In this document: one piece after another, positions 9,922-40,217 of the stretch
How positions within the stretch are numbered: position 1 is the stretch's first letter
Layout of the letters: every line of letters starts with the position of its first letter
IMG/VR virus record: IMGVR_UViG_3300032074_000007
Location: 1 to 43,877 of that record
Length of the DNA: 43,877 nt
Reading direction: 5' to 3' (one strand)
Source of the DNA: a virus
Taxonomy: Duplodnaviria > Caudoviricetes
Translations under genes and position numbers: made by a program
The notes under the pieces: model-generated
Seen by the model: the letters and a program-made list of their open reading frames with translations, nothing else
Told to the model about the DNA's origin: nothing
The model's database searches: none

Positions 9922-10700
9922 CTAGTCGTCATCCCCCTGGCCGAAGTCCATCTCGGCCCTCCGTTGTGCAGCCAGGAGCTTCTCGGCCTTACGTTGCTCG
10001 GTAGGGGCGACCAGGTTGATCGTCGTACCGGGGAGAGAGTTCTTGTCCTCGCTAGAGACTGCCTTTATGTAGCAGCCCTGACAGAAATGCTCTTCTGCCT
10101 CGTACGCGAACCTGTTCTCTTCCCACTCCCATTGTGCTGTCCCGCACAACGAACACACCTCTCCCTCGAATAACAGGGTGGCAAGGTGTTTGGCTCGGGA
10201 TTCCTGCGACCAGGAAAGCCAGTCGTCATGCGGTATGCCCTTTTCGACGCAGTACCGCATGACGAGTCTGAACTCGGGATCGTTCCTCAGTCGCTCTTTG
10301 TAAAAGGGACCTGCATGCCCTCCATGCAGAGGTTGGAGCAGGTGTCGAAGAGCTGGTTCAGCTCACCCGTGCTCCAGAACTCCGACTCCCAGATCTCCCG
10401 AGCGTCATCGAGAGAGAGCTTCGGCTCCACCGAGCAGGCCGCGACCAGAGCAGGGGCGAAGGTGTTCGGGTTGAATGCGAACCCCCGCGCCCGCTGCTCG
10501 GTCGTCGGCTTGTGCTTGGTCTGAAGCTTGTCTAGCTCGTGAGCTGAAATGGCCTCGAAGGTCATCTGCACCTCTTCACCCGACACATCGATTGCGATGG
10601 TCTTGCGACGAGGCCGCTTTCCCTTGAGCTTGTCCAGCAGGGACTGCTTGTCATTCTCACTCTGCTTCTGACGAGCAGCGGTGATCTTCACTTCGGACAT
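9922..10700 (-). CDS. Tail assembly chaperone, long (-1 frameshift) form
   Basis: A -1 shift at C-CCT-TTT gives ...VPFYKERLRNDPEFRLVMRYCVEKG..., open and in frame with ORF 9922..10260; classic position between major tail and tape measure. Confidence 0.85.
10287..10700 (-). CDS. Tail assembly chaperone, short form
   Basis: Start moved to ATG 10700 (MSEVKIT..., GAGGAG RBS); 137 aa ending VPFTKSD. Confidence 0.85.
   Translation of the reverse strand: MSEVKITAARQKQSENDKQSLLDKLKGKRPRRKTIAIDVSGEEVQMTFEAISAHELDKLQTKHKPTTEQRARGFAFNPNTFAPALVAACSVEPKLSLDDAREIWESEFWSTGELNQLFDTCSNLCMEGMQVPFTKSD
10302..10308 (-). other. Programmed -1 ribosomal frameshift slippery site CCCTTTT
   Basis: X-XXY-YYZ heptamer in the correct phase, a few codons before the stop of the short chaperone. 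Confidence 0.85.
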
Positions 10701-10741
10701 TCTGTTGTTCTCCTCTGGGCGGTGAGGGTGGGTACTGCTGA

Positions 10742-11221
10742 TTACGCGACGGTTGCAGCCTCGACCGGGACCTGCGAGACAGCACAGGTAACCGTGAAGG
10801 TCATGACCGAGTTGTTGCTCATGTTGGCCATCGTGCGGGAAACGACCGTGATCGGCCAGACCTCGACCTTGGTGCCAGTGACGGGAGCCGTGCCGCCCGT
10901 GCCGAAGCGCGACAGGACGAAGAAGCCCTTGGTCTTGCGCGGGAGGGTGACCCACGCCAGGTCGCCAGTGACACCCACGGTGTCGTCACGGTAGAAGTCA
11001 GCGGTGACAGTCGCGGAAACCGTACCGGGGACGCTGGTCTCGAAGAGGTTGTCCAGAGTCGGGGTCGGAACCGTGTTGCCGTTGGTGGAAGCGTTGAACG
11101 AGATGAGGTAGCCGGTGAGGTTCTTACCAGCGGTGATCTCAGCCGTCGAGGGTGATGCGAGGTTCGCCACGGCAGGAAGGAAGCCCACCCAGACGTTCTC
11201 GTTGGGGATAAGGCGAGCCAT
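10742..11221 (-). CDS. Major tail (tube) protein
   Basis: 159 aa; 'VANLASPSTAEITAG', 'ETSVPG', 'KVEVWP' resemble actinophage tail tube proteins; lies before the chaperones. Confidence 0.85.
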   Translation of the reverse strand: MARLIPNENVWVGFLPAVANLASPSTAEITAGKNLTGYLISFNASTNGNTVPTPTLDNLFETSVPGTVSATVTADFYRDDTVGVTGDLAWVTLPRKTKGFFVLSRFGTGGTAPVTGTKVEVWPITVVSRTMANMSNNSVMTFTVTCAVSQVPVEAATVA

Positions 11222-14261: not shown

Positions 14262-14783
14262 TCAGCGCTTCTTCCGCTTGTAGTAAGCATCTCCAGCCCT
14301 GCGACCAGCCTGATAGCCAGCAGCAGCGCCACCAGCAGCGATGCTGGCATTTCCCAGCACACCTGCGTAGTTACCGCTGATGAGGTGAGGAACGGCTGCC
14401 GTACCGCCCGCAGCGTTAGCGATGCCGGTAGTGTCTCGCCCGATTGGTCGATCCCGGTGCTTGGAGTTGTAGTGGGACTGGTGAGCGCCGACACCTGCAC
14501 CAGCGGCTCCACTGCCACCGCCGACGAGGGCGAGCTTCTTCCAGCTAACTCGACCACTGGCGAGACCGCGCTTGTCAGCCACCGGGTTCTTTGGGACGAA
14601 GTTCTCCCGAGGCGGCTTACGAGGGCCAGTACGACCGAAGCTCGTTCGCTTACCTTGGTGGAACCGGACCTTGCCTTCGAGGGCGGGTGGTCCCTTAGGC
14701 GCTTCTCCAGGGAGATGCACCAGGGCACTACCTATGCTCTTGGACACGGTTGAGCCGTGGTCCACACCCCAGACGCTGATCAT
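14262..14783 (-). CDS. WGVDHG-leader basic glycine-zipper protein 1 (173 aa)
   Basis: AGGAG RBS; MISVWGVDHGSTVSK leader; Arg/Lys-rich body; Gly/Ala hydrophobic helices; ends YYKRKKR. Confidence 0.8.
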   Translation of the reverse strand: MISVWGVDHGSTVSKSIGSALVHLPGEAPKGPPALEGKVRFHQGKRTSFGRTGPRKPPRENFVPKNPVADKRGLASGRVSWKKLALVGGGSGAAGAGVGAHQSHYNSKHRDRPIGRDTTGIANAAGGTAAVPHLISGNYAGVLGNASIAAGGAAAGYQAGRRAGDAYYKRKKR

Positions 14784-16303: not shown

Positions 16304-17116
16304 TCAGAAACGCTCGGAGAGGTACTCGTCGTACGCCTCCGGGTTGGACATGAAGAAGTCTGCGGTCAGCTCTTCCGTGGAAGCGTCGAAGCCCTTGGAA
16401 ACGGCCTCACTCGCGTAAGCGGAAACCTGGTCGTAGACATCCGAGTTGGAGCCGCCACCGATGTTGCCGGTCTCCATGTAGACAGCCTCACCAGCCGCCT
16501 CCAGGCACTTGGCGATGACCTCGCAGTCCTCGCGGCTGAGGTTCTCCGCAGCGCGCATGAGAACGCCACCCAGAACGTCGTCCTGGAAGGGAAGGCCGTA
16601 GCTCTTGGCGATCTCGGAGTACTCACGGTGCAGGCGAACCTGACGCTCGTGCTCGGCAGCCTGCTGAGCCTTCGAGACCTGCTCGTGCAGAACCTCGATG
16701 GTGCCGAAAGCCTTGGTGATGACCTGGTCACGGTCAGAGTCGCTGAGAGCCTTGGAAAGCTCCGAGCGAAGGTCCTCCACGAAGGAGGGGGACGAAGCGT
16801 TCTTGCGCACCGTCTCATTACGCCGGAAGGGGTTCTCGAAGGACTTGCCGACGAGCTCGGGCTCGCGCTCCTCCTCGAACTCCTCATCGAGGGTGAACTG
16901 GTATGCCTCGCCGTCCGCGTCGTAGACCACGTCGCCGTCGTTGAGGGCATCCAGGTCGAGCGGGTTCCCCTGCTCGTCGTAAATGTCCATCGTTTCCTCC
17001 ATCTCGCCTGATGCACTCTTGGCGATGGTGACTACAGCGTGCTGGTTAGCACCCTTATCGACCAGAGAGATCTCATCGATCTCCAGGCCGCTGATCTGTC
17101 GAGCTTTGCGAGCCAT
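16304..17116 (-). CDS. Scaffold protein whose N-terminus carries a prohead-protease-type EISLVDxxAN strand
   Basis: 270 aa, acidic and helical, ending 'NPEAYDEYLSERF' just before decoration and MCP genes; nine (I/V/L)xK sites; internal GGAGG-N5-ATG at 16990. Confidence 0.8.
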   Translation of the reverse strand: MARKARQISGLEIDEISLVDKGANQHAVVTIAKSASGEMEETMDIYDEQGNPLDLDALNDGDVVYDADGEAYQFTLDEEFEEEREPELVGKSFENPFRRNETVRKNASSPSFVEDLRSELSKALSDSDRDQVITKAFGTIEVLHEQVSKAQQAAEHERQVRLHREYSEIAKSYGLPFQDDVLGGVLMRAAENLSREDCEVIAKCLEAAGEAVYMETGNIGGGSNSDVYDQVSAYASEAVSKGFDASTEELTADFFMSNPEAYDEYLSERF

Positions 17117-17158
17117 CTCATAAACCTCGTTCTTAGTTTGCAGAGGGGTGCAACACCC

Positions 17159-18751
17159 TCACTGATTGATCATTCTCAGTTGTCCGTAAGAACGGCCACG
17201 GCCCCTCTTGTAACTGCGAATCCGGTCTGCTCCCACCCCGAGTCCGATAGCGCCTGCACCCAGAAGCGCAGCCTTTCCAGCGTGCCCGTTAGCGGTCTTG
17301 CGGCTAGAAAGGGCTCGTTCCAGAAGCCCTGCCTTCGTACCGTTGTGCTCGGCGTGGCTGAAGTTGTTGCGAGCAGAGTTCTCCCATTCGCTCTTAAGCC
17401 CGGTAGGCGGCGGAACGTGGGGCGTCTCGGTCTTGTAGTTGCTGGCAGTCTTCTCGGCGGCACGAGCCTTACGAGCGTGCATGGCAGCGAATCGAACATG
17501 GGTTGCAGAACCTGCACCCAGAGCACCAGCTCCCGCCACTGCACCATTCTGGTAAGCGGACATTCGACGCTGACGACTGCGCTCCGGGTCATAAGCCTTG
17601 AAGACCAGGTCATCAGCAGACTTCTTCATCCGCTGGCGACGAAGCTGGGAAACAGCGTGGTCGTGCCGCTTCTCGTTAAGGCGACCTGCGACCATCGTGG
17701 CTCCACCACCGACCATCGCAGCACCACCAGCCAGGGCCATAGTCCCAGCAGGGTTTGCCTTCAGACCGCTGGCGAGAGCACGACGTGCGAGCTTGCGTCC
17801 TGGCTTAGACATCCTTTGAGGTCCGACGTGATACTGAGCAGCGTGTCTGGCCAGGTTGGAAGCGTTGTGAATCTCAGTGCCCCAGTCCGAGCCTCGGGCA
17901 CCTGCCAGAACAGCAGAACCAGTAATGGCAGCACCACCGACTCCTGTAGTGCTCTTGCCACGGTTGTAGGTGCGGCGGGAGTCACGGGCACGACGCTGGT
18001 GCTCTGAGATGTTGAATCCCTCGTCGTAGCTCTTACCGAACTTCTGACGCTTGGGCTGACCCATTGCCATCGCACCCGCACCAGCAGCCAGACCCAGACC
18101 ACCAGCAGCGCCCATCTTCTGGTTGGGGCTAAGGCGAGAGAGCATCCCGCCCTGCTGACGGTGACGACCCGGCATAGCACCAGGTATCGTCTTGCCGGTG
18201 GGAGCCCCAGGACCGGCCTGACGGTAGGTAGAAGTGGCAGCACCGAAGGTCTTGGGAGCCTGAGCGCCTTGAGGACCCATCGGCTTGGGCATAGCCATCG
18301 GCTTGACGTTGAGAGCGGGCTTTACGCCCATCGCAGCCATGGGAGCCTTCAGTCCAGGGACCTTAGGCATGGGCATTGCCTTGGACACCTCAGTGGTGCC
18401 AGAGAGACCGAAGTCGAGCATCTGAAATCCCTTTACGATGGGCTTTGGCTGTCTCTTGCGAGCCTCAGCCTTGGTGTAACTGGCGAAGTTGAATGCACCG
18501 ACACCGCCGATGCCACCAGCAGCGACAGTGGCACCTGTAGAAGCATCCTTGAGCTTTTCTGAAGCTGCAGCGTTATGAGTGATCGGGGTTAGTCGCTGGA
18601 TGGTGCGTCCGATCTTTCCTGCCCCCCGCGCAGCACCAGCACCTCGCATGCCCAGCGCAGTGAGACCTAGGGTGCCAGTCGTGAGACTGATGTTTCCCTG
18701 GATCTTCTTACGCCGAGCGATCTGCGCGTCGGACAGGATTGGACGGGTCAT
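17159..18751 (-). CDS. Basic glycine-zipper polyprotein-like protein (530 aa, about four modules)
   Basis: ATGA-coupled; Arg/Lys-rich modules with GxxxG helices separated by IVK|GFQMLDFGLSGTTEVSK|, FGK|SYDE and MKK|SADDLVFK|AY. Confidence 0.8.
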   Translation of the reverse strand: MTRPILSDAQIARRKKIQGNISLTTGTLGLTALGMRGAGAARGAGKIGRTIQRLTPITHNAAASEKLKDASTGATVAAGGIGGVGAFNFASYTKAEARKRQPKPIVKGFQMLDFGLSGTTEVSKAMPMPKVPGLKAPMAAMGVKPALNVKPMAMPKPMGPQGAQAPKTFGAATSTYRQAGPGAPTGKTIPGAMPGRHRQQGGMLSRLSPNQKMGAAGGLGLAAGAGAMAMGQPKRQKFGKSYDEGFNISEHQRRARDSRRTYNRGKSTTGVGGAAITGSAVLAGARGSDWGTEIHNASNLARHAAQYHVGPQRMSKPGRKLARRALASGLKANPAGTMALAGGAAMVGGGATMVAGRLNEKRHDHAVSQLRRQRMKKSADDLVFKAYDPERSRQRRMSAYQNGAVAGAGALGAGSATHVRFAAMHARKARAAEKTASNYKTETPHVPPPTGLKSEWENSARNNFSHAEHNGTKAGLLERALSSRKTANGHAGKAALLGAGAIGLGVGADRIRSYKRGRGRSYGQLRMINQ

Positions 18752-19203
18752 TGGCTCTTCCTGCGTCCGAAAGCAGTGATCTGGCCCTTAGGGACACCAG
18801 TCTGAAGGTCGCCATTCTTGATGCCAGCCTTAATAGCGCCACGGCGAGCCCTGTTGTTGATGCTGCTCATTCCTGTGGCCTGACCCACGTATGAACCGAG
18901 TCCAGCCCCAGCGACAGCGCCTTGCCTAACGCTGCCCAGGGAGCGACCCGCTGCGGCCCCCAGAGCGCCACCGACAGCAGTGCCAGTACCCATGTGGGTT
19001 GCCAGTGTGCCCCAGTTCTTAGCTCGGTGACCCTTAGACCTCGGGGAGACTAGACCTGATCGGCGCATCATCTCCCGGCGAGTGTTAACCCGCCCAGCCT
19101 TGTCGGTATACGCGATTCCCTGAGCCTTAAAGCTCCGGTCGGTCGGGTCCTTCTTGGAGATCTCGACACCATGATCGACACCCCAGACTGAAATGCTGCT
19201 CAT
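18748..19203 (-). CDS. WGVDHG-leader basic glycine-zipper protein 2 (151 aa)
   Basis: MSSISVWGVDHGVEISK leader; glycine zipper GTAVGGALGAAAG...GAVAGAGLGSYVG; coupled to the protease gene. Confidence 0.8.
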   Translation of the reverse strand: MSSISVWGVDHGVEISKKDPTDRSFKAQGIAYTDKAGRVNTRREMMRRSGLVSPRSKGHRAKNWGTLATHMGTGTAVGGALGAAAGRSLGSVRQGAVAGAGLGSYVGQATGMSSINNRARRGAIKAGIKNGDLQTGVPKGQITAFGRRKSQ

Positions 19204-20051
19204 AGATCTATGTCCTTTCGGATGCCAGAACCGTGGATCGAGAACTCCTTGCGCTCGCCACGCTTAACCTGCTGCCAGGTGTCCTCATCGTTCACCTGAA
19301 ACCCGACCCACCATCCGGTTGGGGTGTCCTCGGGAAGTCCCATCTGCTGCTTCTTCTCGGGGGTGACCAGGAAGGACTCGATCATGTCCGAGACATGAAC
19401 GCCCTTCTGGTGCTGGTTGCCACCCACCCGCGACTTACGCACGTAGTTGTAAGCGGCCTTTTCGATCTCATCGACGGAGAGATAGTCACCCTGCAGGTCC
19501 ACCACAGGCTCACCATTGACCTCCACGATGGAAGCCCAGCCGAAGACCTGTCGCTTGTCGTCGTCCATCTTGGAGATCTCGCCACGCCACTGGATGTCAG
19601 GAGTGTCGCTCTTGGAGATCTTCTCTTCCATAGCGGCACGGCGAAGACGCTTAACGACCGTGGGGTTCTTCTTCTGCTTGGTGTCGCTGTGCAGGATCTT
19701 GGTGGCCATCACTTCACCACCGAGACCAGCGACCTCCAGCGGGACCAGCGCAGTACCGAAGGGCTCGTGCTTGGCACCGGTCTTAACGGCTTCCCCCACC
19801 TTGCGGAACTTGCCGACCTTCTTGGAAGCCTTGTAGGCAGGAACAGCTGCCTCACCGAACTTCTTACCGGCATATGCCAGACCAGCAGCGCCAGCAGTAG
19901 CACCGACAGCACTAAGCGCAGCAGTGCCCACACGCTTCTGCCGATCAGTGAGAGCCTTGGAAATCTCCCAGGCTCCATCCCCGTACAGAAGCTCCGCGAC
20001 GGACAGCACCTCGTCACGGTTCTTCTGCACGAGCTTAAGAGTGGGGTTCAT
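19200..20051 (-). CDS. Prohead protease (XkdF / S78-like serine protease) with long N-terminal pro-region
   Basis: C-terminal domain 'RQVFGWASI...VDLQGD...IEKAAYNY...NQH...IESF...GWWVG...W..VK.GE..EFSIHG'; three ISK sites precede it. Confidence 0.85.
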   Translation of the reverse strand: MNPTLKLVQKNRDEVLSVAELLYGDGAWEISKALTDRQKRVGTAALSAVGATAGAAGLAYAGKKFGEAAVPAYKASKKVGKFRKVGEAVKTGAKHEPFGTALVPLEVAGLGGEVMATKILHSDTKQKKNPTVVKRLRRAAMEEKISKSDTPDIQWRGEISKMDDDKRQVFGWASIVEVNGEPVVDLQGDYLSVDEIEKAAYNYVRKSRVGGNQHQKGVHVSDMIESFLVTPEKKQQMGLPEDTPTGWWVGFQVNDEDTWQQVKRGERKEFSIHGSGIRKDIDL

Positions 20052-20073
20052 GGTTCCATGTTCCTGTTCTCCG

Positions 20074-22257
20074 CTAGTCCTGCGGCTTCATGTAGACGAT
20101 GGTCACTGGAAGGTGGCTGGCCTGTTCCAGTTCCAGATCTGGAGCGTCGTAGTCGGGAACCCAGTTACCGGGGTTCTTCCAGCCTTCGATGGTTTCCTCT
20201 GTCTCCATCGGTCGAACCGCATTTGTGACCACTATGGTGGGAACCATTTCGTCTGTTTTCGCTTCGAGCGCCAGTTTCTTAATCAGGTATTGAGTGGTAA
20301 AGGGACGCTGAATGGTGTGGCCCTCAGCGTCTGTACCTTCCAGCAGCCAGAGTTCGTTTGATCCACGCCCAGAAACGCTGTAGGCAGCGTTCAGCATGAG
20401 GTCATGGAGCATTTCGTTGTCATCCGCATCGAACCTGATGCCATCAGTAACGAATGTCTTCCTGCTCCTGTCGTGCTCCCACTCTTCGAGCTCATCAGTG
20501 ATGGCGTCATCCCAGGCAGCCTGGATCTTGTCCTGAAGAACCTGGTGACCGCCGAGAGCGCGTTCACCGACCCGGAATCCGTTGTCATCCCGCTCATCGA
20601 GGATGACTCCGTTGCCGACCAGACCTTCCGCAGCGGGCTTGATGAAGAGAATTGGGTACTCGGCAGGCTGCCATCCGAACGGCAGGTACCTATCGCCCTT
20701 GTCCGTCTTGTGGTATTCCAGAAGCCTGCTGACTGCCTCATCGATCTGGCGTCCGACCACGGTGTCACTGAGTTGGATGCGACCCACTTCACGGGCAGTA
20801 CCGCCGATCTCACGACGCTTGGTACCGAGTTCGCGCCCAGTGGTCCTCAGCTCAGCACCAGCGCCGATCTCCCTAGGCTGACCGATCTCAGCCCTACGGC
20901 CTACCTCACGACCCTGGCCGATGGACCTTCCCTGACCGATGGTCCTGGCTTGACCGATCTGGCGCTGTCCCAGTTCCCTGCCTACGGTCTCCCGTAGCGG
21001 GCTGGCCTCTGCCTCACGCTCAGCACCCTTCTCTTCCTCAGCCGCCCGCATGACCTCTCGCAGGTCGCCCTTCTTCTGCCGCATCACCTGAGACAGATCA
21101 CTGCGGTGCGGAGGAACTTCCTGACCAGCCTCCTGCACCCTCTGCTCTTCCTCATGCGGAGGCGCAGCAGCGGTGGCGTATAGCGGAACCTCTGCCTTGC
21201 CATGGGCAGGATGACGGGTCTCCCGACGAGCGAAGTGACCATGGGTATCACGGTTGTATGGATCACCCGGCTGGTTCTTGGAGACCGTGATCTTGCGAAG
21301 CCTCTTAGCGAGCTGAAGGCGAGGAGCACTCGTGTACTCCAGGATCACGTCGCAGCGGCAGTTGACGTGCAGAGGTGGTGTCCAGGCTTTGCCGAGGGTT
21401 GTGTCGAAGGTTTCCCCGACCTCCACCCGCTTACGGTGCAGCGGGCCACAGTGCTTGCAGACCTTCTCGTCCTTGGCAGTTACCCAGACCCGTCGAGCAT
21501 CCGGAGGGATAATCCCCTTCTGCACGCCATAGGCCCAGACGACCTGCTTGGCTTGCGACTTGGTGCTCCAGGCTTCTGCCTCAGCCACCTGCCCAGCCCG
21601 GTTACGAAGCTGAGCGTCGATGAAGGTCTTTGCCCGGACATCACGAACCGAGTCCTGCAGTACCGAGGTGAACCGCTTTGGGTCTTCAGAGTTCCAGATG
21701 GAGACCAGCGCATTCATCGCACGCGGAGGAACACCGAAAGCCTCAGCCACCATGCGAGCAGCCCGAGCAGGAGGAACCTTGCGGTTCACCTGCGCCTGGA
21801 AGCCCATAAGCATGGCCTCGGTAGAGACCTCGTTGTAGTGCTCCCCCAGTTGACGCGCATATCCCTCAGCGATCTCGTACAGATCCTTTTCGGGGATCTG
21901 ACCCGCCTTGGCTTCCTTCACACCGATCCGGTAGCCAGCCAGCAGCGGAGGTAGAGCCATGCCCACCCACTTCAGCATCAGGGACTGCGCAGTGGTGTTT
22001 GCGATCATCTCCAGGGTAGAGACCCGAGGCTCAGATCCAGCCTTCTCCTTGATGACCCGAGACATGATTGCTCGATGCAGAAGGAAGGCAGCACCTAGCG
22101 CCAGTCCGACCTTCTCCAGAGTGGAGAAGTCTCGCTGGTTAGACAGGCGGGTGTACTCCTGCTGCTCCGGTGGGGTGAGAACCAGCGGGTCCTTAAGGGC
22201 CAGCGGGTCCTGTAGCTCATACGGATTAGTGAGTTCACTCGAAGTCGAAGTCGTCAT
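20074..22257 (-). CDS. MuF (Mu gpF / SPP1 gp7-like) minor head protein with C-terminal extension
   Basis: WVTAKDEKVCKHCGPLH...PPLHVNCRC MuF signature, then VSK, RDTHGHF and hexapeptide repeats. Confidence 0.85.
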   Translation of the reverse strand: MTTSTSSELTNPYELQDPLALKDPLVLTPPEQQEYTRLSNQRDFSTLEKVGLALGAAFLLHRAIMSRVIKEKAGSEPRVSTLEMIANTTAQSLMLKWVGMALPPLLAGYRIGVKEAKAGQIPEKDLYEIAEGYARQLGEHYNEVSTEAMLMGFQAQVNRKVPPARAARMVAEAFGVPPRAMNALVSIWNSEDPKRFTSVLQDSVRDVRAKTFIDAQLRNRAGQVAEAEAWSTKSQAKQVVWAYGVQKGIIPPDARRVWVTAKDEKVCKHCGPLHRKRVEVGETFDTTLGKAWTPPLHVNCRCDVILEYTSAPRLQLAKRLRKITVSKNQPGDPYNRDTHGHFARRETRHPAHGKAEVPLYATAAAPPHEEEQRVQEAGQEVPPHRSDLSQVMRQKKGDLREVMRAAEEEKGAEREAEASPLRETVGRELGQRQIGQARTIGQGRSIGQGREVGRRAEIGQPREIGAGAELRTTGRELGTKRREIGGTAREVGRIQLSDTVVGRQIDEAVSRLLEYHKTDKGDRYLPFGWQPAEYPILFIKPAAEGLVGNGVILDERDDNGFRVGERALGGHQVLQDKIQAAWDDAITDELEEWEHDRSRKTFVTDGIRFDADDNEMLHDLMLNAAYSVSGRGSNELWLLEGTDAEGHTIQRPFTTQYLIKKLALEAKTDEMVPTIVVTNAVRPMETEETIEGWKNPGNWVPDYDAPDLELEQASHLPVTIVYMKPQD
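20779..20994 (-). repeat. Coding tandem repeats R-x-(I/V/L)-G-x-x in the MuF extension
   Basis: RELGQ RQIGQA RTIGQG RSIGQG REVGRR AEIGQP REIGAG ... RELGTK REIGGT REVGR. Confidence 0.75.
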
Positions 22258-25216
22258 GCACCAGCCCCAGCTTCTTCATTCGCTCGATGATCACCTTGGT
22301 GCCCTCGTCGTCCATCTCACGCAGGTTGGCCAGGGCGTCGTAGATCTCATCTTGACTGCCCTTCATGATTCCAGTCCGGAGCTGGTGAAGGTTGTCTTGC
22401 GTCTCCTTGTCGCGGGATCGCTTTTCCCAGTCGACCATGTCAGCGATCAGTTGAGTGCGCTCCTGGTCAGCCTTGGGCATGTGTGCGTACTGCGAAGCGC
22501 CAGAAGGAGTGGAGGAACTGGTAGAGGTGACCTGAGGCTCCGCAGCAGCAGCAGGAGCAGGAGCAGGCTTCTCGACAGCATCTCCACCGGAGGCCAGGAC
22601 TCGACGCAGTCGCTCGATTCGCTCAGCACCGATAGACCACCGATCCTTAGCCTCAGCGGGGTTGTCCTTCATCAGGCGAACCGTGCGAGAGGTCTGCGAA
22701 TCAGTCCAGGTCGGGTTGAGGTTGGTGAGTCGCTCGACCAGCGTCTCCTCATCCGCGTTCGAGTCAGCCAGCTTCCACATCTCACCGAATCGGTTACCGA
22801 GATCACGCAGCTTGTCATCGTCCTTGGGGACCTTGATCCCAGGATTCTGCTGCTCGATCTCCTTGGTGAGCTGACCCCATGTGCGCTGGTAGACCCCAGC
22901 ATCCGAGCCCAGAATGTAGGCAGGGCCGACGAACTGGTAGGTGCTAGCGGGAGAAGGCTCGCCCTTGTACTCCTTGCGGTTCCACACGACGTTGCCCTCA
23001 GGAAGCTTCAGATGGGCGATGGTCTTCAGCTTGGAACGAATCTGGCTCGCACGGCTCTGGAAGCTCTTGGTCTCTGCCTCGTTCTGACCAGCGCTCTCCA
23101 GCTCGTCGGCGTAGGACTTCATCTCATCCATCAGCTTGGAGGACTGGATGTGGTCCTTGACGATCTGGTCCAGCTTCTCATCGCTGGACTGAGCCGCGTT
23201 CAGGGTCGGGAACAGCTCCTTGTTCGCCTTGGCGACCTTGGTGATCTTGACGGCTTCCTTGATCTGGTTCTGGACCTGAACCGAGCGACGGCCCCTCTCG
23301 GCAGCAGCACGAAGGTTGGCAGGCTTCTTGACTGCGCCTTCCTCGGTGGTCCCCTCACCCTCAGGAGTAGCGGTGGCTGCAGCCTGCTGGACCGGAGTCA
23401 GCTTGTGACCGCGCTGGCTCCAGTTCTGGTAGTTGGTCTGCTCGGCAGAGTGCTTCTTCGCACCGATCTTCTCGCCGTACCAGCCAGCCTGAGCAGCCGT
23501 AGGACGGTTGTACCTGGGCTTGACGTATCCAGAGTCCGTCTCGGGAGACAGACCCATGTCACGCGCACGCGGGTCCTTGTTGTGGATGTACTGGACGTTC
23601 TGGATGTAGTACGGGTACTGCTCGCGCAGAGCGTCCAGAGCCACTGCGTAGCCCTCGCCATCGAGCTGAAACTTGGTGGCTTCCTTGTCCCGGAGAGCGT
23701 CCTCGATCATCTGGCCCTTGTAAGCCAGGAAGCGCTTCTTGGGGTCATCAGAGATACGAGTCCACTCACGCTCAGAGAACTGACCACGCGGACCACGGCC
23801 ACCCTCAGCAGCGGCAGCAGCGGCCTTGCTGTTGATGTCATCCAGTTCAGAGCGCGAGAGCGTAGGACGGGTCTGAGCCTCAGTAGTCCGACGCTTGATC
23901 TCGTCTTCGATCTCAGACGGGGTGAAGCCATCGAACTCCTGCTCCACCTCATCACGAATGCGGAGGCGGTCCTCCATGCTCATCGGAGCACGAGTCACCT
24001 GCTTGGACTGAACCGCGTCGAGAGTGTGAGCGTACCGACTGACCATGCCTGCGGCCTTGTCGTTGAAGCGACGGCCACCACGGAAGTCATCCTCGAAGTC
24101 CATCGTGAAGACACCCGAGCGAGAGACCACCGTGACACTACGAGCACCTGACACCAGACCGGTGTAGATGTCCTCAGAGGTCAGACCGCCCGAAGAGCGC
24201 GTGCGCACGTAAGCGCCACCCTGCAGCCCCCTGAGGTTCTTGAGGTTGAAGGGCAGGTAGTGGTCATCCATGTAGCCGACAGCCTGCGTGATGATCTTGC
24301 CGTCACCATTGATGATGACGCCCTCAGACGGCGGGATCTTGCCCGACTTGGCCTGCAGCTCAGCGAGCGACTTCTGGGGGATTCGCTTGGACAGGTAGTT
24401 GACCGCAGCCTGGTGTGCAGCCGTGTTCATCATCGGAGTGGTGAACTGCGCGTTAGAGGTCAGACCCTCCCTGCGACCGATGTTGGCCACCTGGTCACGC
24501 TGAATCCTGGCCAGCTCGTTGTCAGGAACGCGCTCAGTGCCCCGGTAGCGGTAAGCGGTACGGCGCATGTGCGGGCCGATGATGGCCTCAGCCTGAGGAC
24601 CGTACTGACCCAGGAACTGACCTACGTCACCAGCGACACGAAGCTTGGCGTTCCCAGTGGCGTTACCGACCTGAGACAGGGCATGGCTGCCTGCCTCGAT
24701 GCGGCTGTAGACACCAGCGGTGGTGGAGTCCTCCTGGCCTCGCTCGTGCCACTTGTCCGAGAACCGGTTGCTCTCCTGCCCGGTGCGTGCCAGCGCGTTG
24801 GTGACATCGAAGTTCCCGACCGACACGTTCTGCTTGGCTCGCTTGTCAGCCTTGCTGGGCTTGTTCTTCTCCCGAGACGCAGAGAAGTTCACCGTCCAGC
24901 GACCATTGTTCCCACGCGGCTGGGGCTTGTGGTACAGCTCCTCGAAGTTGGTCCCCGACTTGCTCACCACTCCCACTAGAGCAGCAGCAGCCACAGCCTC
25001 AGGCTGACCCTCACGAGACTGCAGGGACTTGCTGACCTCTTCCCGGATCTCTCCGAGGATCTCTCCTACAGCCTTACTGACAGTACGACGGTTGTTCTCC
25101 AGGTCCTCCATGAGAACACCGTGGACGACCATCTTCTGGAACATAGCGGCGGTATCGTCGTCCATCTTGGCGACGATGTCGAAGTACTTTGCCGCGAAAT
25201 CACGGTTGAAACTCAT
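22235..25216 (-). CDS. Large putative internal virion protein (993 aa) with pro-segment and degenerate JAB/MPN-like domain
   Basis: AGGAGG RBS; VSK at K48, K63 and K86, then PRGNNGRW; 'EGVIINGDGK...AYVRTRSSGGLTSED' segment. Confidence 0.65.
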   Translation of the reverse strand: MSFNRDFAAKYFDIVAKMDDDTAAMFQKMVVHGVLMEDLENNRRTVSKAVGEILGEIREEVSKSLQSREGQPEAVAAAALVGVVSKSGTNFEELYHKPQPRGNNGRWTVNFSASREKNKPSKADKRAKQNVSVGNFDVTNALARTGQESNRFSDKWHERGQEDSTTAGVYSRIEAGSHALSQVGNATGNAKLRVAGDVGQFLGQYGPQAEAIIGPHMRRTAYRYRGTERVPDNELARIQRDQVANIGRREGLTSNAQFTTPMMNTAAHQAAVNYLSKRIPQKSLAELQAKSGKIPPSEGVIINGDGKIITQAVGYMDDHYLPFNLKNLRGLQGGAYVRTRSSGGLTSEDIYTGLVSGARSVTVVSRSGVFTMDFEDDFRGGRRFNDKAAGMVSRYAHTLDAVQSKQVTRAPMSMEDRLRIRDEVEQEFDGFTPSEIEDEIKRRTTEAQTRPTLSRSELDDINSKAAAAAAEGGRGPRGQFSEREWTRISDDPKKRFLAYKGQMIEDALRDKEATKFQLDGEGYAVALDALREQYPYYIQNVQYIHNKDPRARDMGLSPETDSGYVKPRYNRPTAAQAGWYGEKIGAKKHSAEQTNYQNWSQRGHKLTPVQQAAATATPEGEGTTEEGAVKKPANLRAAAERGRRSVQVQNQIKEAVKITKVAKANKELFPTLNAAQSSDEKLDQIVKDHIQSSKLMDEMKSYADELESAGQNEAETKSFQSRASQIRSKLKTIAHLKLPEGNVVWNRKEYKGEPSPASTYQFVGPAYILGSDAGVYQRTWGQLTKEIEQQNPGIKVPKDDDKLRDLGNRFGEMWKLADSNADEETLVERLTNLNPTWTDSQTSRTVRLMKDNPAEAKDRWSIGAERIERLRRVLASGGDAVEKPAPAPAAAAEPQVTSTSSSTPSGASQYAHMPKADQERTQLIADMVDWEKRSRDKETQDNLHQLRTGIMKGSQDEIYDALANLREMDDEGTKVIIERMKKLGLVHDDFDFE

Positions 25217-34842: not shown

Positions 34843-35268
34843 TCAGAGAGCAGCGGCGAGACCGAGCTGCAGTCGCTGCTCAGCCTTAATTTGATCGAGC
34901 ACCCACTGAGCGGTCACTCCAGTGGCGAAGCCACCATTCACGACATCAGGGATCTGAACGTTTGCGGGGAGATCAGAGATGTCAGTAATCGACCCCTTAG
35001 CGCTCGCCTTGAAGACGAGAGGGTCGATGAGTGGAGAGCCACCTTGGGTGATGTCCAGCGTGTAGTAGAGCCCATCCCAGGTGACCAGATCCATGGAGAA
35101 CTTGCCGTTGGCATCGGTGTAGACGTAACCGACCTCATTGGCGAAGACGACATCGTTTACGAGATCAGTGCCACCAGCAGGAGAAGGGGTAGCGCGCACC
35201 AGAGCACGCGGCACAGGGTTATCGAAATGGTCATGGACCGTTCCTTTGATGGTGAACTTGTCAGCCAT
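34843..35268 (-). CDS. Hypothetical virion protein with a carboxypeptidase-regulatory-like beta fold
   Basis: Start moved to ATG 35268 (GAGGAG RBS); 'TIKGTVHD..DNPV..A.V...TDANGKFS'. Confidence 0.6.
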   Translation of the reverse strand: MADKFTIKGTVHDHFDNPVPRALVRATPSPAGGTDLVNDVVFANEVGYVYTDANGKFSMDLVTWDGLYYTLDITQGGSPLIDPLVFKASAKGSITDISDLPANVQIPDVVNGGFATGVTAQWVLDQIKAEQRLQLGLAAAL

Positions 35269-36304
35269 CGGTGCTCCTCTCCCAGACCAGCGAGTCATGT
35301 GCCCGCGACATCTTCTGGAGGTGCGGGGTAGCCACGAAACGACCTGTGTTGAGATCCCTCACAGGCAGGTCTTTTTTAGGCTCTTCAGTAACCATTGCAC
35401 CGCCCATGTCCAGCGTCTCGAAAGCTTTCGATACCGACTTTCGGTGCAGCGCGTACATCCCTCCACCTGCACCCACAGTTGCACCCCCGCCGATCAGAAC
35501 GTTGCGTCGAGTGTTGTTGGTAGGAGCAGGCTTCATCGAGGCCCTCGAAGGATCAGGAGCAGGCTTAGGCGTCTGTGGCGTGCTGGGCGCAGAGTTGGGC
35601 ATCTGCGGAGTAGGCCGAGAAGGAACGTTCACCCCAGCCTTGGGTGCGCTAGAGGTAGGAGGAGCGAAACTAGCCCGAGGAGGACGAGGAGCCGCAGGGG
35701 CAGGAGTTGCTACAGGCTTAGGTGCTGCAGCAGGCTTGGGAGCGCTCAGTCGAGCGGCGCGATCAGCTAGTGCTTTTCGGGCGAGCTTTCTGGGGTCTGC
35801 AGGTCTCTGCGAACGAACCGGTCCACTCTCAGCAGAATGAGCCCAGGCTTCTTCACGAGCGAGCTTCCGGGGATCGTTCTGGATCTGGTGGTGCCGCCAC
35901 GAACTGCGCTGAGGAGCAGCGTGAAACATCTCATGCCTCATGGTGCTATCTGGCGTTGATACCGGAGCCACCACATGCGAAGTCCCACGCTTGGAGCTGC
36001 CGAAACGCACAGTGCCAGCATCAGCACCCTTTTCTGCCTGGGACTGTTCGAACGCCTTGTCTGGGGTGTGGATGTAGGTAGATCCGACCTTGCCTCGAAC
36101 CGTGGTGTGGTTCTTCAGCGCGCTGGCGTTTCCCGCCTGAGCTGCACGGAACTTGTCTGCCGTGTTCTTAGTCTTCATGCGATTCAGGCTGCCCTCGATC
36201 TTGCGAGTCTTGAAGGCACCGCGAAGTTCTTTGGCCCCTACCTCAGTGGCCTTCACATATCCCATGCCAGGGACATAGGACTTGAAGACCAGATCCTCGC
36301 TCAT
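35261..36304 (-). CDS. Basic protein with DLVFK leader, HExxH motif, Pro/Ala linker and Gly-rich hydrophobic helix (347 aa)
   Basis: MSEDLVFKSY; RHEMFHA...REEAWA; VLIGGGATVGAGGGMYAL-HRK; VSK|AFETLDMG; RDLNTGRF. Confidence 0.75.
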   Translation of the reverse strand: MSEDLVFKSYVPGMGYVKATEVGAKELRGAFKTRKIEGSLNRMKTKNTADKFRAAQAGNASALKNHTTVRGKVGSTYIHTPDKAFEQSQAEKGADAGTVRFGSSKRGTSHVVAPVSTPDSTMRHEMFHAAPQRSSWRHHQIQNDPRKLAREEAWAHSAESGPVRSQRPADPRKLARKALADRAARLSAPKPAAAPKPVATPAPAAPRPPRASFAPPTSSAPKAGVNVPSRPTPQMPNSAPSTPQTPKPAPDPSRASMKPAPTNNTRRNVLIGGGATVGAGGGMYALHRKSVSKAFETLDMGGAMVTEEPKKDLPVRDLNTGRFVATPHLQKMSRAHDSLVWERSTDG

Positions 36305-36948
36305 GGCTTGATCTTCTTGGGGAGGGCGAATTCACCGTCTTCGTGCAGCAGGCGGTCCAGGTCAGAGAACTTGAGCCATGCAGAGCCATTGACGCCCCAG
36401 CTCTTGCCCCAGGAGTTGTCCAGACGAACCAGCTCCTTCTTGGCGTCGATCCCGCCGATGCAGATGGCGTGTCCACCAGCCTGAGAGCCAGTGACAGCCA
36501 GCACACCGTTGGAGTCAGGCTCGAACATCCCGTCGTACCAGTTGATACCGATCTCCATGGGGCCGAGGTGAGAGATGGACTGCAGCACCTCATCCGTGGT
36601 CGTAGCCCAGTGATAGGAGAGCACCAGCTTGTCCTGCTGGGCAGCCTTCATGGCCCCGAGCACAGAGCTACCGTCGTAGTTCTCTCCCGGCCACTCATCG
36701 CACTGGCGAGCACGGTCATAACGCTCAGTAGCGAACTGGTTGGTCAGGTTGGGCATACGGCGAGGCGTGATGCCCAGCGTGTGCGAGAGACCGAAGCCAG
36801 TACAGCCAGAGGTCTGGCCCTGGTCCAGCCACAGGTCACGCTTCCAGCTGCGGCTCTTGAGCATGGGCTTAGGAGCGAGCTTGGAGATCTTGTAGTCCAG
36901 CGACTTGGGGTCGAAGCGAGGCTTCCAGTCGAGAATGTGGTTGGTCAT
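36301..36948 (-). CDS. Papain-like (C1A) cysteine peptidase
   Basis: DQGQTSGCTGF (Gln, Cys), GGHAI (His), NSWGKSWG (Asn); no signal peptide. Confidence 0.9.
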   Translation of the reverse strand: MTNHILDWKPRFDPKSLDYKISKLAPKPMLKSRSWKRDLWLDQGQTSGCTGFGLSHTLGITPRRMPNLTNQFATERYDRARQCDEWPGENYDGSSVLGAMKAAQQDKLVLSYHWATTTDEVLQSISHLGPMEIGINWYDGMFEPDSNGVLAVTGSQAGGHAICIGGIDAKKELVRLDNSWGKSWGVNGSAWLKFSDLDRLLHEDGEFALPKKIKP

Positions 36949-37328
36949 GCGACGCTCCTAGGCCATGTAGGGGTGGGTGCAGGGCCATTGCCATCCCAGG
37001 CAGCAGCCCACTGTTGTTCGATCAGCTCTGCGACGAGGTTTGTCCCGTCTTCGAGGGTGACTCGTGCGACGAACTCGCCGCCGTACTTGTAGTCCTTCAC
37101 CATCGTCAGGATCACGAGTGAGTCCAGTGGCAGGCGCTGTACGAGGTGCTCTCGCGCAGCCTTTCCTGCCTCGGTCTTAAGCTCCCAGGCGTTACAGCCC
37201 AGCAGCCTGACCTTGTACTTGATGGTGATGCGCAGACCCATGTCGATGTAACACTCGATGGTGTCTCCATCCACGATGCGATCCACGATGGCTACGTAAG
37301 CCCGCTCATGCGGGAAGTCGAGATTCAC
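36945..37328 (-). CDS. Thermonuclease (SNase-like) protein
   Basis: IVDGDTI, VRLLGCNAWE and KYG motifs, 'L...G.N....L' C-terminus; GTG start coupled to the upstream stop. Confidence 0.85.
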   Translation of the reverse strand: MNLDFPHERAYVAIVDRIVDGDTIECYIDMGLRITIKYKVRLLGCNAWELKTEAGKAAREHLVQRLPLDSLVILTMVKDYKYGGEFVARVTLEDGTNLVAELIEQQWAAAWDGNGPAPTPTWPRSVA

Positions 37329-38326
37329 GGCGCGATGGCCTTCTTTGCATGGTTGAGACGCCCACGAGCGCCAGGCTTCATCTTCACTTCCAGGCTTCGT
37401 CCCGCGACACCAGCAGCAGCGATACCCAGACCGACCTTTCCTGCCTTGCGGGCGACCTGTGCTTGCTTGCCATAGACCCGAGAGAAGTAACGCTCCTGGG
37501 TAGCCATGCCTCGCAGCTTTCCAGCCTTGGTGGCGTCAGCATCAGTGTGGCCATGGAAGACGCCCTGCCAGTTGTTGGCGATGTCCTGCGTGCTACGGCT
37601 GGGGTGATATTTAGGAACATTGGTGGCGCGGTTACGTCCGAAGGGGCTCTTGGCTGGAGTCTTCTCTTTCTCGTAGCCACCCAGGTTGGGGTTGAGCTTG
37701 TGGGCTTCAGCCATGTGGGTCTTAGCGCGATGAGCCCACTTGTTCCCCTGAGCGTCCATCACATGACCGCCAGCGAAGCCAGTGGCAGCGAGCGTGCCTC
37801 CTCCACCGAGGAGCGCGTTGGACTTGAACTCATCGTGCTTCTGGGCCTTGGCGACGAGACTCTTGTTCTTGCGCTTGTGGGCATAAGCGCCTCCTGCAGC
37901 CAGAGCAGCACCTGCCCCGAGAGCGATGTTGGACCCGATACGAGCGCCGTGCATGGTCCTGATGACCTTCTTCTCAGCCTGGACCCTGCCCTGCATCGCA
38001 CCACGCTCGAAGGCTTTGCCGGTGTTCTCAGCTCTCCAGCCGCGAAGGTCGTTGTTCATCTCGTTGAGGTACTTGCGGTGAGCGTCCTCTCGGTAGCCGA
38101 AGATGCCACCACGACCGCCTGACACTAGGTGTCTAGTTGCTCCGACCTTGCTCGTCGCAGTCTTGGCTTGGTGCAGTCGTCCACTGTCAGGACGAGCGAT
38201 GGGAACACCACCACCTACCAGACCGACACCACCGATGGTTGCGCCAGCACCCATAGCCTGACCGCTGTAGTCAGACTTGCGCTTAGAGACTTCGACGCCA
38301 TGGTCTACGCCCCAGTAACTCTCCAT
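37325..38326 (-). CDS. WGVDHG-leader basic glycine-zipper protein 3 (333 aa, two modules)
   Basis: ATG overlaps the portal stop (TGATG); MESYWGVDHGVEVSK leader; internal LVAK|A junction. Confidence 0.8.
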   Translation of the reverse strand: MESYWGVDHGVEVSKRKSDYSGQAMGAGATIGGVGLVGGGVPIARPDSGRLHQAKTATSKVGATRHLVSGGRGGIFGYREDAHRKYLNEMNNDLRGWRAENTGKAFERGAMQGRVQAEKKVIRTMHGARIGSNIALGAGAALAAGGAYAHKRKNKSLVAKAQKHDEFKSNALLGGGGTLAATGFAGGHVMDAQGNKWAHRAKTHMAEAHKLNPNLGGYEKEKTPAKSPFGRNRATNVPKYHPSRSTQDIANNWQGVFHGHTDADATKAGKLRGMATQERYFSRVYGKQAQVARKAGKVGLGIAAAGVAGRSLEVKMKPGARGRLNHAKKAIAP

Positions 38327-40182: not shown

Positions 40183-40217
40183 GGCCCTCCTCGGTCCCTT
40201 CAATCATGCAGAAATGA

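Follow-up and report, generated by a model that had tools for sequence, protein, structure and literature searches.

A probable phage prohead protease divided between two genes, with its last strand encoded at the start of a probable scaffold gene

Introduction

Where is the rest of a prohead protease encoded when its gene stops shortly after the active-site serine? The question is raised by a 43,877-nucleotide stretch of tailed-virus DNA (Caudoviricetes; IMG/VR record IMGVR_UViG_3300032074_000007), referred to here as the window. In HK97, the third residue of the catalytic triad is acidic and lies on the last strand, a segment that the protease gene of the window appears to lack. An earlier note on this DNA proposed that this strand is carried at the N-terminus of the scaffold and that the enzyme is completed only when the two proteins meet in the prohead. 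We followed up these claims computationally.

Results

The protease gene (19,200−20,051, minus strand; 283 aa) encodes a conserved, basic, Gly/Ala-rich leader of 147 residues, followed by a core (aa 148−283; 19,203−19,610, minus strand) that starts after an ISK/S motif. The core matches PF14550 (Peptidase_S78_2, XkdF-type; aa 158−276 on profile positions 4−122 of 126, E = 2.9e-21), scoring 76.2 bits against a curated cut-off of 24 bits, while a search of the genome with the canonical S78 profile, PF04586, found nothing at E ≤ 10. Both predicted active-site motifs are present, GNQH with His214 (codon 19,410−19,412) and EFSIHG with Ser271 (codon 19,239−19,241), and the equivalent core residues H67 and S124 are invariant, in the order His...Ser, in 54 of 54 sequences. 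Also invariant within the core are three acids, D185, E197 and E225 (D38, E50 and E78 of alignment A1). The early stop described in the earlier note is real, but it follows FSIHG by nine residues (SGIRKDIDL) rather than ten, and lies 12 residues past Ser271. PHROG 1530, labelled ‘DNA methyltransferase’, is a wrong annotation for such genes.

The missing segment was found 2.1 kb downstream, at the 5' end of a probable scaffold gene (16,304−17,116, minus strand; 270 aa in its long form) that sits before the decoration and capsid genes. Residues 9−163 of its product match PHROG 3270 (E = 0.0021), and ICP1 has a tested scaffold in the corresponding position (PMC10945586). Residues 1−33 (17,018−17,116, minus strand) form a strand module homologous to the final strand of S78 proteases and the loop after it, with E15 (17,072−17,074), S17, GAN at 22−24 and K33 as landmarks; LEIDEISLVDKGANQHAVVTIAK corresponds exactly to residues 11−33 of the 270-aa ORF (17,086−17,018), as had been claimed. 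Profile searches bear out the proposed homology. PHROG 3017 is tiled by the two ORFs, scaffold aa 5−39 occupying profile positions 2−36 (E = 0.0026) and protease aa 148−280 positions 32−156 (E = 1.4e-11); the 40-aa scaffold N-terminus also matches PF04586 weakly at positions 128−158 of 165 (E = 0.074, under the cut-off), and three homologous scaffold N-termini do so, again weakly, at positions 127−159. The strand profile had no match in the three minus-strand frames of 17,117−20,100. A canonical S78 protease (PF04586, HK97 gp4 type) holds His, Ser and last strand in one chain, whereas here the chain stops 12 residues past Ser and the strand-only match is on another gene; nor does the module precede the core at the N-terminus of its own chain, as in permuted proteases, being carried by the ORF at 16,304−17,116. 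A search for longer proteins into which the scaffold N-terminus is fused gave three candidates, none of which scored; this evidence is weak.

Two ORFs lie between the halves, as the earlier note stated. One (18,748−19,203, minus strand) encodes a basic, Gly-zipper-like protein of 151 aa with a SVWGVDHGVEISK leader, its Gly-zipper matches being below the cut-off; the other (17,159−18,751, minus strand) encodes a basic, Gly/Ala-rich protein of 530 aa with three hydrophobic-x-Lys motifs and no family match in profile searches. Both are putative head cargo. Beyond the scaffold gene are those for a head decoration/cement protein (15,874−16,284, minus strand; PF09956, E = 3.3e-05) and the major capsid protein (14,860−15,855, minus strand; PHROG 1005, E = 1.4e-85). 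A promoter and terminator scan of 14,700−20,400 predicted one promoter and five terminators, where 1.1 and 3.5 would be expected, every one of them on the non-coding strand. We reject a sequencing artefact or frameshift as the cause of the split, because the halves are separated by two whole ORFs and 135 cores show the same layout. The protease is thus split across two genes, and since the core gene stops after Ser while the strand opens the scaffold gene, the working enzyme is probably made from two gene products.

The earlier note had allowed that the split might be general, and a survey of 162 distinct cores near the lineage of the window demonstrated that it is: the module is on a downstream gene for 135 of them, so the layout is widespread in the family rather than unique to this phage. 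Among split cores, 120 of 134 end within 30 aa of Ser, and 37 of the 135 pairs are no more than 100 nt apart. Conversely, of 78 loci retrieved with the strand, 61 have a core on a separate gene upstream, and the remaining 17 contain 36−2,711 nt of upstream sequence. None of 200 core-bearing proteins had the strand within its own chain (best score 0.6 bits). The permuted form that the earlier note described for XkdF, with the module before the core in a single chain, was seen in PBP180 ORF10, B83 and two survey loci, L042 and L043, and psiM2 has a canonical single chain with the module after the core at Ser+24/+26, so that the survey recovered fused, permuted and split forms alike. Six cores had no strand gene despite more than 3.5 kb of downstream sequence; three of these appear damaged, and no clear capsid module follows any of them. 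Conservation of the strand module extends over viral contigs, prophages of Bacillota and Actinomycetota, and alphaproteobacterial phages, with positions S/D17 and V19 and a [GPA]AN loop maintained, while tblastn with the full scaffold of the window found no counterpart in 50,697 phage records. A tree of 74 of 150 rows, kept after removal of near-copies (145 columns), assigns the window to a starred group of 58 rows, all of them split; the other side mixes seven split, eight permuted and one canonical row. Long branches come together there and the tree has no known root, so it does not establish in which order the forms arose. A structure search of the ESM Atlas returned a 411-aa cluster in which PF04586 and PF14550 occur together; the Atlas feature matches were all <0.9 and serve as leads only.

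The acid on the last strand was said to be conserved, a claim that the survey weakens. Among 138 strands scored (135 split and four permuted, one not parsed), 95 carry E-x-S, as does the window with E15, 31 have the acid two residues on (x-x-D) and 12 have neither. At the corresponding site, 118 permuted Bacillus chains carry Y (109), F (7) or H (2), never an acid. We therefore reject a universal strand-borne acid on these counts. In SPN3US gp245 the third triad residue is D178, 25 residues past Ser (PMC5694885), a position beyond the end of the protease chain of the window.

The core was modelled alone, and its fold begins at about aa 155 (strand E8−16 of the model), so the construct suggested in the earlier note, which starts from MDDDK at aa 162, inside the first modelled strand, would cut that strand. 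The predicted Ser strand is limited to E122−125, and residues 126−136 have pLDDT <50, consistent with the suggestion that the core alone is incomplete. Chain ends often score low in models anyway. In the model of the natural permuted chain L043, strand E3−16 is accompanied by a 12-residue Ser strand, E147−158, at pLDDT about 80; comparison of the two models is not a clean with/without control, as both protein and alignment depth differ. The GAN loop and return segment (19−35) of the permuted model have pLDDT <50, so an oxyanion role for this loop rests on homology. Structural comparison of the core model gave Z 9.0 with T4 gp21 (PDB 5JBL, residues 3−151; 116 aligned positions at rmsd 3.5); no other of the 48,161 chains reached Z ≥ 8. 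Z was 5.4 with the VZV protease and 3.9 with HCMV protease 12−153, where the alignment ends before H157. Foldseek gave E = 0.38 for the core model against 5JBL, which is not significant, and no match at E ≤ 0.001 for either model. VIA-align placed residues 32−162 of the permuted model on gp21 chain residues 2−153 (Z 10.6, rmsd 2.7); residues 1−31 were not mapped onto the last strand of gp21, so the place of the strand in the barrel is not shown directly. Sequence searches of PDB chains found nothing for the core alone, and the core and strand profiles gave chance matches only. As modelled, the core has the assemblin/gp21 protease fold.

Just past the IAK/S motif of the scaffold there is a predicted internal ribosome-binding site and start, overlooked in the earlier note (16,988−17,000, minus strand): GGAGG (17,000−16,996) followed by ATG at Met43 (16,990), which would give a 228-aa scaffold without the strand. 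The predicted Shine–Dalgarno (SD) duplex energy is −9.3 kcal/mol at Met43 versus −7.1 kcal/mol at the first ATG. A strong SD and start after K33 occur in 91 of 134 scaffolds versus 127 of 1,248 control windows, while the long start retains its own SD in 100 of the 134. On this prediction, the scaffold gene probably yields two products, of which the long one includes the strand and the short one lacks it; since the conserved internal start skips the strand, probably only the long form would donate it.

Hydrophobic-x-Lys motifs number 25 in the head-module proteins versus 6.4 expected and seven versus 5.1 outside the module, with a pattern picked after viewing these proteins and counts that are not independent, as the loci are related.

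Discussion

We lean towards a two-chain protease completed by, and tethered to, the long scaffold form. Scaffold residues 1−33 would bind the core as last barrel strand and oxyanion loop, probably whenever the two chains meet, before or during assembly, and the ratio of long to short scaffold would set the number of protease molecules per head. The enzyme would likely cut after hydrophobic-x-Lys in scaffold, cargo and its own leader; a cut at IAK/S would leave the strand on the enzyme. Such an arrangement would amount to a non-covalent counterpart of the nested protease–scaffold genes of herpesviruses (UL26/UL26.5).

Activation strictly inside the prohead, as the earlier note proposed, is possible. 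Here the strand would be hidden or bind weakly until the prohead concentrates both partners. Other systems offer parallels: herpesvirus protease is held off by dimer-dependent ordering of its oxyanion loop (PMC4498786), the predicted equivalent of which is included in the donated module, and T4 gp21 is held off until assembly by an N-terminal block (PMC9958956). A free protease can trip CBASS (PMC12991175), which could favour a gate, and the conserved leader of the core gene might carry the core into heads separately. Yet our analysis gave no sign of weak or conditional binding, a long strand in a barrel usually binds tightly, ungated permuted and canonical single chains occur in the same family, and the closely spaced pairs of the survey would suit co-translational pairing, so we consider strict gating unlikely.

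A role for the strand in docking or recruitment only, with Ser, His and a core acid (D185, E197 or E225) working without it, perhaps in a homo-oligomer, is in our judgement improbable. The invariance of those acids while the strand acid varies would fit, as would the retention of most of the gp21 fold by the core alone; against this, the conserved S/D17, V19 and [GPA]AN loop exceed the needs of a plain docking peptide, and the Ser strand does not fold when the core is modelled alone. That the module is a vestige of gene fission which serves the scaffold and does not bind the core is very improbable, for although a few cores lack a nearby strand gene and the predicted short form suggests a scaffold that may work without the module, the module is kept across phyla where the full scaffold has no tblastn match, and the long start is so often furnished with its own SD.

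The proposed completion of the core by the long scaffold can be set against known systems. XkdF-type proteins (PF14550/PHROG 3017; PBP180 ORF10, B83 gp09, HHTV-2 gp38) share the core, His and Ser, and a module ending in hydrophobic-x-Lys, but hold strand, core and scaffold in one permuted chain, whereas in the window the strand is two ORFs away; most Bacillus chains of this type have Y-x-S where the window has E-x-S. psiM2 ORF12 is a collinear PF14550 case whose order of core, strand and scaffold is the gene order of the window. In cultured phages, RDJL Phi1 gp71/gp72, CRP-6 gp55/gp54, DLP3 gp3/gp5 and Mufasa8 gp4/gp5 each have a core gene that stops shortly past Ser or is strandless, and a next large gene that opens with the module; these genes are adjacent or nearly so, whereas two ORFs intervene in the window. 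Their annotations read protease, ‘DNA methyltransferase’ or hypothetical, the split being unmentioned in the records examined, and we found no description of the layout in the literature searched. ICP1 gp125/gp124, genes 0006/0007 of the E. coli K-12 phage Bas58, and PaoP5 appear by eye to be split pairs whose divergent module was missed by the strand profile. T4 gp21 and the herpesvirus assemblins share their fold with the core model and are complete protease domains, covalent to the scaffold in herpesviruses, whereas the scaffold of the window carries just the last strand module. Hepatitis C virus NS3/NS4A and the adenovirus protease with pVIc are activated by a β-strand from another polypeptide. 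Their folds are unrelated and the cofactor joins a domain that already holds all catalytic residues, whereas in the window part of the enzyme's own fold has moved; activation by the strand would resemble that of NS3/NS4A if binding holds. Long and short scaffold products of one gene, predicted here, are described for UL26/UL26.5 (PMC4498786).

It is only partly settled how a prohead protease is packaged and kept inactive until the shell is ready; with a protease whose last strand is carried by the scaffold, both questions become accessible to experiments on a 35-residue peptide and a 136-residue domain. The split predicts that many genes annotated as a complete protease or ‘DNA methyltransferase’ encode half-enzymes that would look inactive when expressed alone, a point of consequence for work that reconstitutes capsids or screens phage proteases against CBASS. 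A family that holds canonical, split and permuted members is a natural example of circular permutation through fission and fusion. A bolder proposal, which we regard as doubtful, is that a large tailed-phage branch, possibly including ICP1, Pakpunaviruses and Vequintaviruses, has an obligate two-chain protease that receives its oxyanion loop and third catalytic residue from a minority long scaffold only in the assembling prohead, the split form being a fission–fusion intermediate from canonical to permuted. If true, this would be a new timing route for head maturation, perhaps one that dodges protease-sensing immunity.

A probable prohead protease divided between two genes

The structural genes of the window record (43,877 nt, GC 59.7%, estimated to be about 54% complete) are encoded by the minus strand. 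Read along that strand, the order is a Mu-type portal (38326-40203(-)), accessory genes, a 993-aa ORF without a Pfam or PHROG family (22235-25216(-)), a gene for a MuF-domain protein (20074-22257(-)) and the protease ORF (19200-20051(-)). Two ORFs, of 151 aa (18748-19203(-)) and 530 aa (17159-18751(-)), separate the latter from a 270-aa ORF (16304-17116(-)), the probable scaffold, whose first 33 residues form the strand module; genes for the cement and major capsid proteins come next. A papain-family peptidase gene (36301-36948(-); PF00112, E 2.5e-06) sits between the portal and the head accessory genes, and an ORF (10287-11221(-)) that overlaps the tail tube gene matches the tail assembly chaperone family PF08890 over its later portion.

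In profile searches, PF14550 matched aa 158-276 of the protease ORF (E 2.9e-21), and His214, Ser271, D185, E197, E225, W247 and G274 are invariant in an alignment of 54 core sequences. PHROG 3017 is covered by two genes, the scaffold N-terminus at profile positions 2-36 and the core at 32-156, while scaffold aa 9-163 match PHROG 3270 at positions 106-267. The N-terminal 40 aa of the scaffold match PF04586 positions 128-158 of 165 below the cut-off (E 0.074), and three homologous scaffold N-termini match positions 127-159. Among 35 aligned scaffold N-termini, 24 matched PHROG 3017 and 25 matched PHROG 3270 (E<=0.1). No strand-like match was present in window positions 17117-20100. The split that an earlier note had described is confirmed in the window, with the core on one gene and the strand on the 270-aa ORF, where the segment it quoted indeed forms residues 11-33; the protease ORF stops nine residues after FSIHG, rather than the ten stated.

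Predicted structures of the core and a permuted relative

The model of the core alone (mean pLDDT 75) has a short Ser strand (E122-125), and residues 126-136 score below 50. T4 gp21, whose nucleophile is S140 (PMC12991175), comes closest in structure (chain residues 3-151; Z 9.0, rmsd 3.5, 116 aligned), followed by VZV protease 11-125 (Z 5.4); HCMV protease 12-153 aligns at Z 3.9. The core chain stops short of the positions corresponding to H157, the third residue of HCMV protease in PDB titles, to D178 of the SPN3US triad (H77, S153, D178; PMC5694885) and to Ser+24 and Ser+26, where the strand sites of psiM2 are located. In the model of L043 (aa 1-165), a natural single chain in which the strand precedes the core, the N-terminal strand is long (E3-16) and the Ser strand spans 12 residues (E147-158); the match to gp21 is stronger than for the core model (Z 10.6, rmsd 2.7). 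Residues 19-35 of the L043 model are of poor quality, and the structural alignment to gp21 left residues 1-31 unplaced.

Distribution of split and permuted forms

We surveyed 266 loci: from IMG/VR, 44 and then 78 new ones by core queries (the second taking the best 80 of 363) and 78 by a strand query (best 80 of 131); 50 from GTDB genomes; and 16 phage records, one per group out of 60 listed. The strand lies on a separate downstream gene in 135 of 162 distinct cores, a proportion that describes a sample gathered around the window lineage and is not a family-wide rate. Four cores are permuted single chains and 23 had no strand match by profile. By eye, five named phages among these 23 are split (PHB09, Mufasa8), permuted (HHTV-2, P12024L) or canonical, with the strand after the core (psiM2); 12 of the 23 had <2.5 kb of downstream sequence available, and six had >3.5 kb with no strand gene there. 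The gap between core and strand genes in the 135 split pairs is <=100 nt in 37, 100-500 nt in 13 and >500 nt in 85 (maximum 4,184). Canonical, permuted and split forms all occur, split being the most numerous in the sample, and the caveat that the arrangement may be general is supported.

The core profile reaches 11,825 clusters at E<=0.001, and none of 200 core-bearing proteins carried the strand in the same chain. With the PHB09 core as query, 551 phage records were found; in four of them (Bas58, ICP1, PaoP5 and A7_1) the gene after the core starts with a segment of similar appearance, which ends in ...G-x-[SA]-A-N...L-x-x-K. The strand profile did not match this segment and profile-profile comparison was weak (probability 0.9%, E 0.063); on sequence resemblance these phages are leads to possible further split cases. 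A split or permuted prohead protease was not described in the titles and abstract openings of the open-access literature searched.

What the strand carries

The proposed strand donation has analogies in NS3/NS4A and pVIc. The earlier note had the last strand bearing a conserved acid, which proves not to be universal: the 138 parsed strands comprise 95 with E-x-S, 30 with S-x-D, one with K-x-D and 12 with neither acid, and 118 permuted Bacillus chains have Y, F or H at the first site. The S-x-D strands, from Bacillota prophages (L064-L107), place the acid two residues later, possibly a compensating swap on the same strand face. Since the [GPAT]AN loop and the module-ending Lys (124/125) are steadier than the acid, the proposed donation more likely contributes structure and oxyanion formation than a required acid. 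In herpes proteases the regulated element is the oxyanion loop (PMC4498786). The Lys is retained in permuted chains as well, where we infer that a cut would yield the same two pieces as the split form.

Cleavage motifs, leaders and candidate cargo

HK97 protease cleaves after Lys. Head-module proteins (4,900 aa) contain 25 copies of the motif [IVF][SAGFE]K[SAKRMG], chosen after inspection of these same proteins, versus 6.4 by shuffling; other proteins (7,317 aa) contain seven versus 5.1. The scaffold has five copies and the protease ORF four, one of the latter immediately ahead of the core.

Three ORFs (14262-14783, 18748-19203 and 37325-38329, all (-)) have in common the N-terminal leader S-x-W-G-V-D-H-G-x(2-3)-[IV]SK, and 131 copies of a related pattern were counted across 65 fetched loci, partly redundant. 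By analogy this is a candidate cleavable capsid-targeting leader, for which the T4 CTS offers a comparison (PMC9958956). The 147-aa protease leader (19613-20051(-)) opens with a sequence resembling L[YF]GxGAxE[IL][IV]SK that many relatives conserve, and its Gly/Ala-rich helices resemble those of the putative cargo ORFs; it may bring the core into heads without the scaffold. Distant basic ORFs (17159-18751(-) and 35261-36304(-)) share a DLVFK|[AS]Y motif. The 993-aa ORF has five hydrophobic-x-Lys motifs, four within its first 90 aa, and is possibly an internal head protein.

Some split cores (loci L061, L093, L181 and L255; proteins P0151, P0154, P0183 and P0190) continue for 300-840 aa after the Ser without a strand; these extensions are possible passenger domains carried into heads. 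Others (L047, L056, L059 and L060, from RHph_Y1_11, DLP3, MS01 and RcTiptonus) run on for ~90 aa with repeated H-x-H, possibly a metal-binding tail. DLP3 gp3 and gp5 were both found in virions, with two peptides each (PMC7326821).

Predicted internal scaffold starts and a proposed model for protease recruitment

Internal starts were sought 3-25 codons past the module-ending Lys (SD duplex <= -7 kcal/mol), with windows of equal size further into each gene as controls. A start codon with a strong SD was present in 91/134 scaffold genes versus 127/1,248 control windows, and in 71/84 genes far from the core versus 20/50 near it, counts that are inflated by related genomes. In the window scaffold, GGAGG lies five bases ahead of Met43 (duplex -9.3 versus -7.1 kcal/mol for Met1), a predicted start that would give a second, shorter scaffold product lacking the strand. 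The ICP1 scaffold gene product assembles shells and, when made in E. coli, shows as bands of 23 and 17 kDa, but not when protease inhibitors are added (PMC10945586).

The observation in the earlier note stands, and its interpretation, completion in trans by the scaffold peptide inside the prohead, is partly supported. The most probable reading, at moderate confidence, is that the first 33 residues of a long scaffold form would complete the barrel and oxyanion loop of the core, so that proteases would enter the prohead with the scaffold in limited number and cut hydrophobic-x-Lys sites there. Strict gating, with activity confined to the prohead, seems unlikely; that the strand serves as a tether only is rather more doubtful, and its being a vestige is highly improbable.
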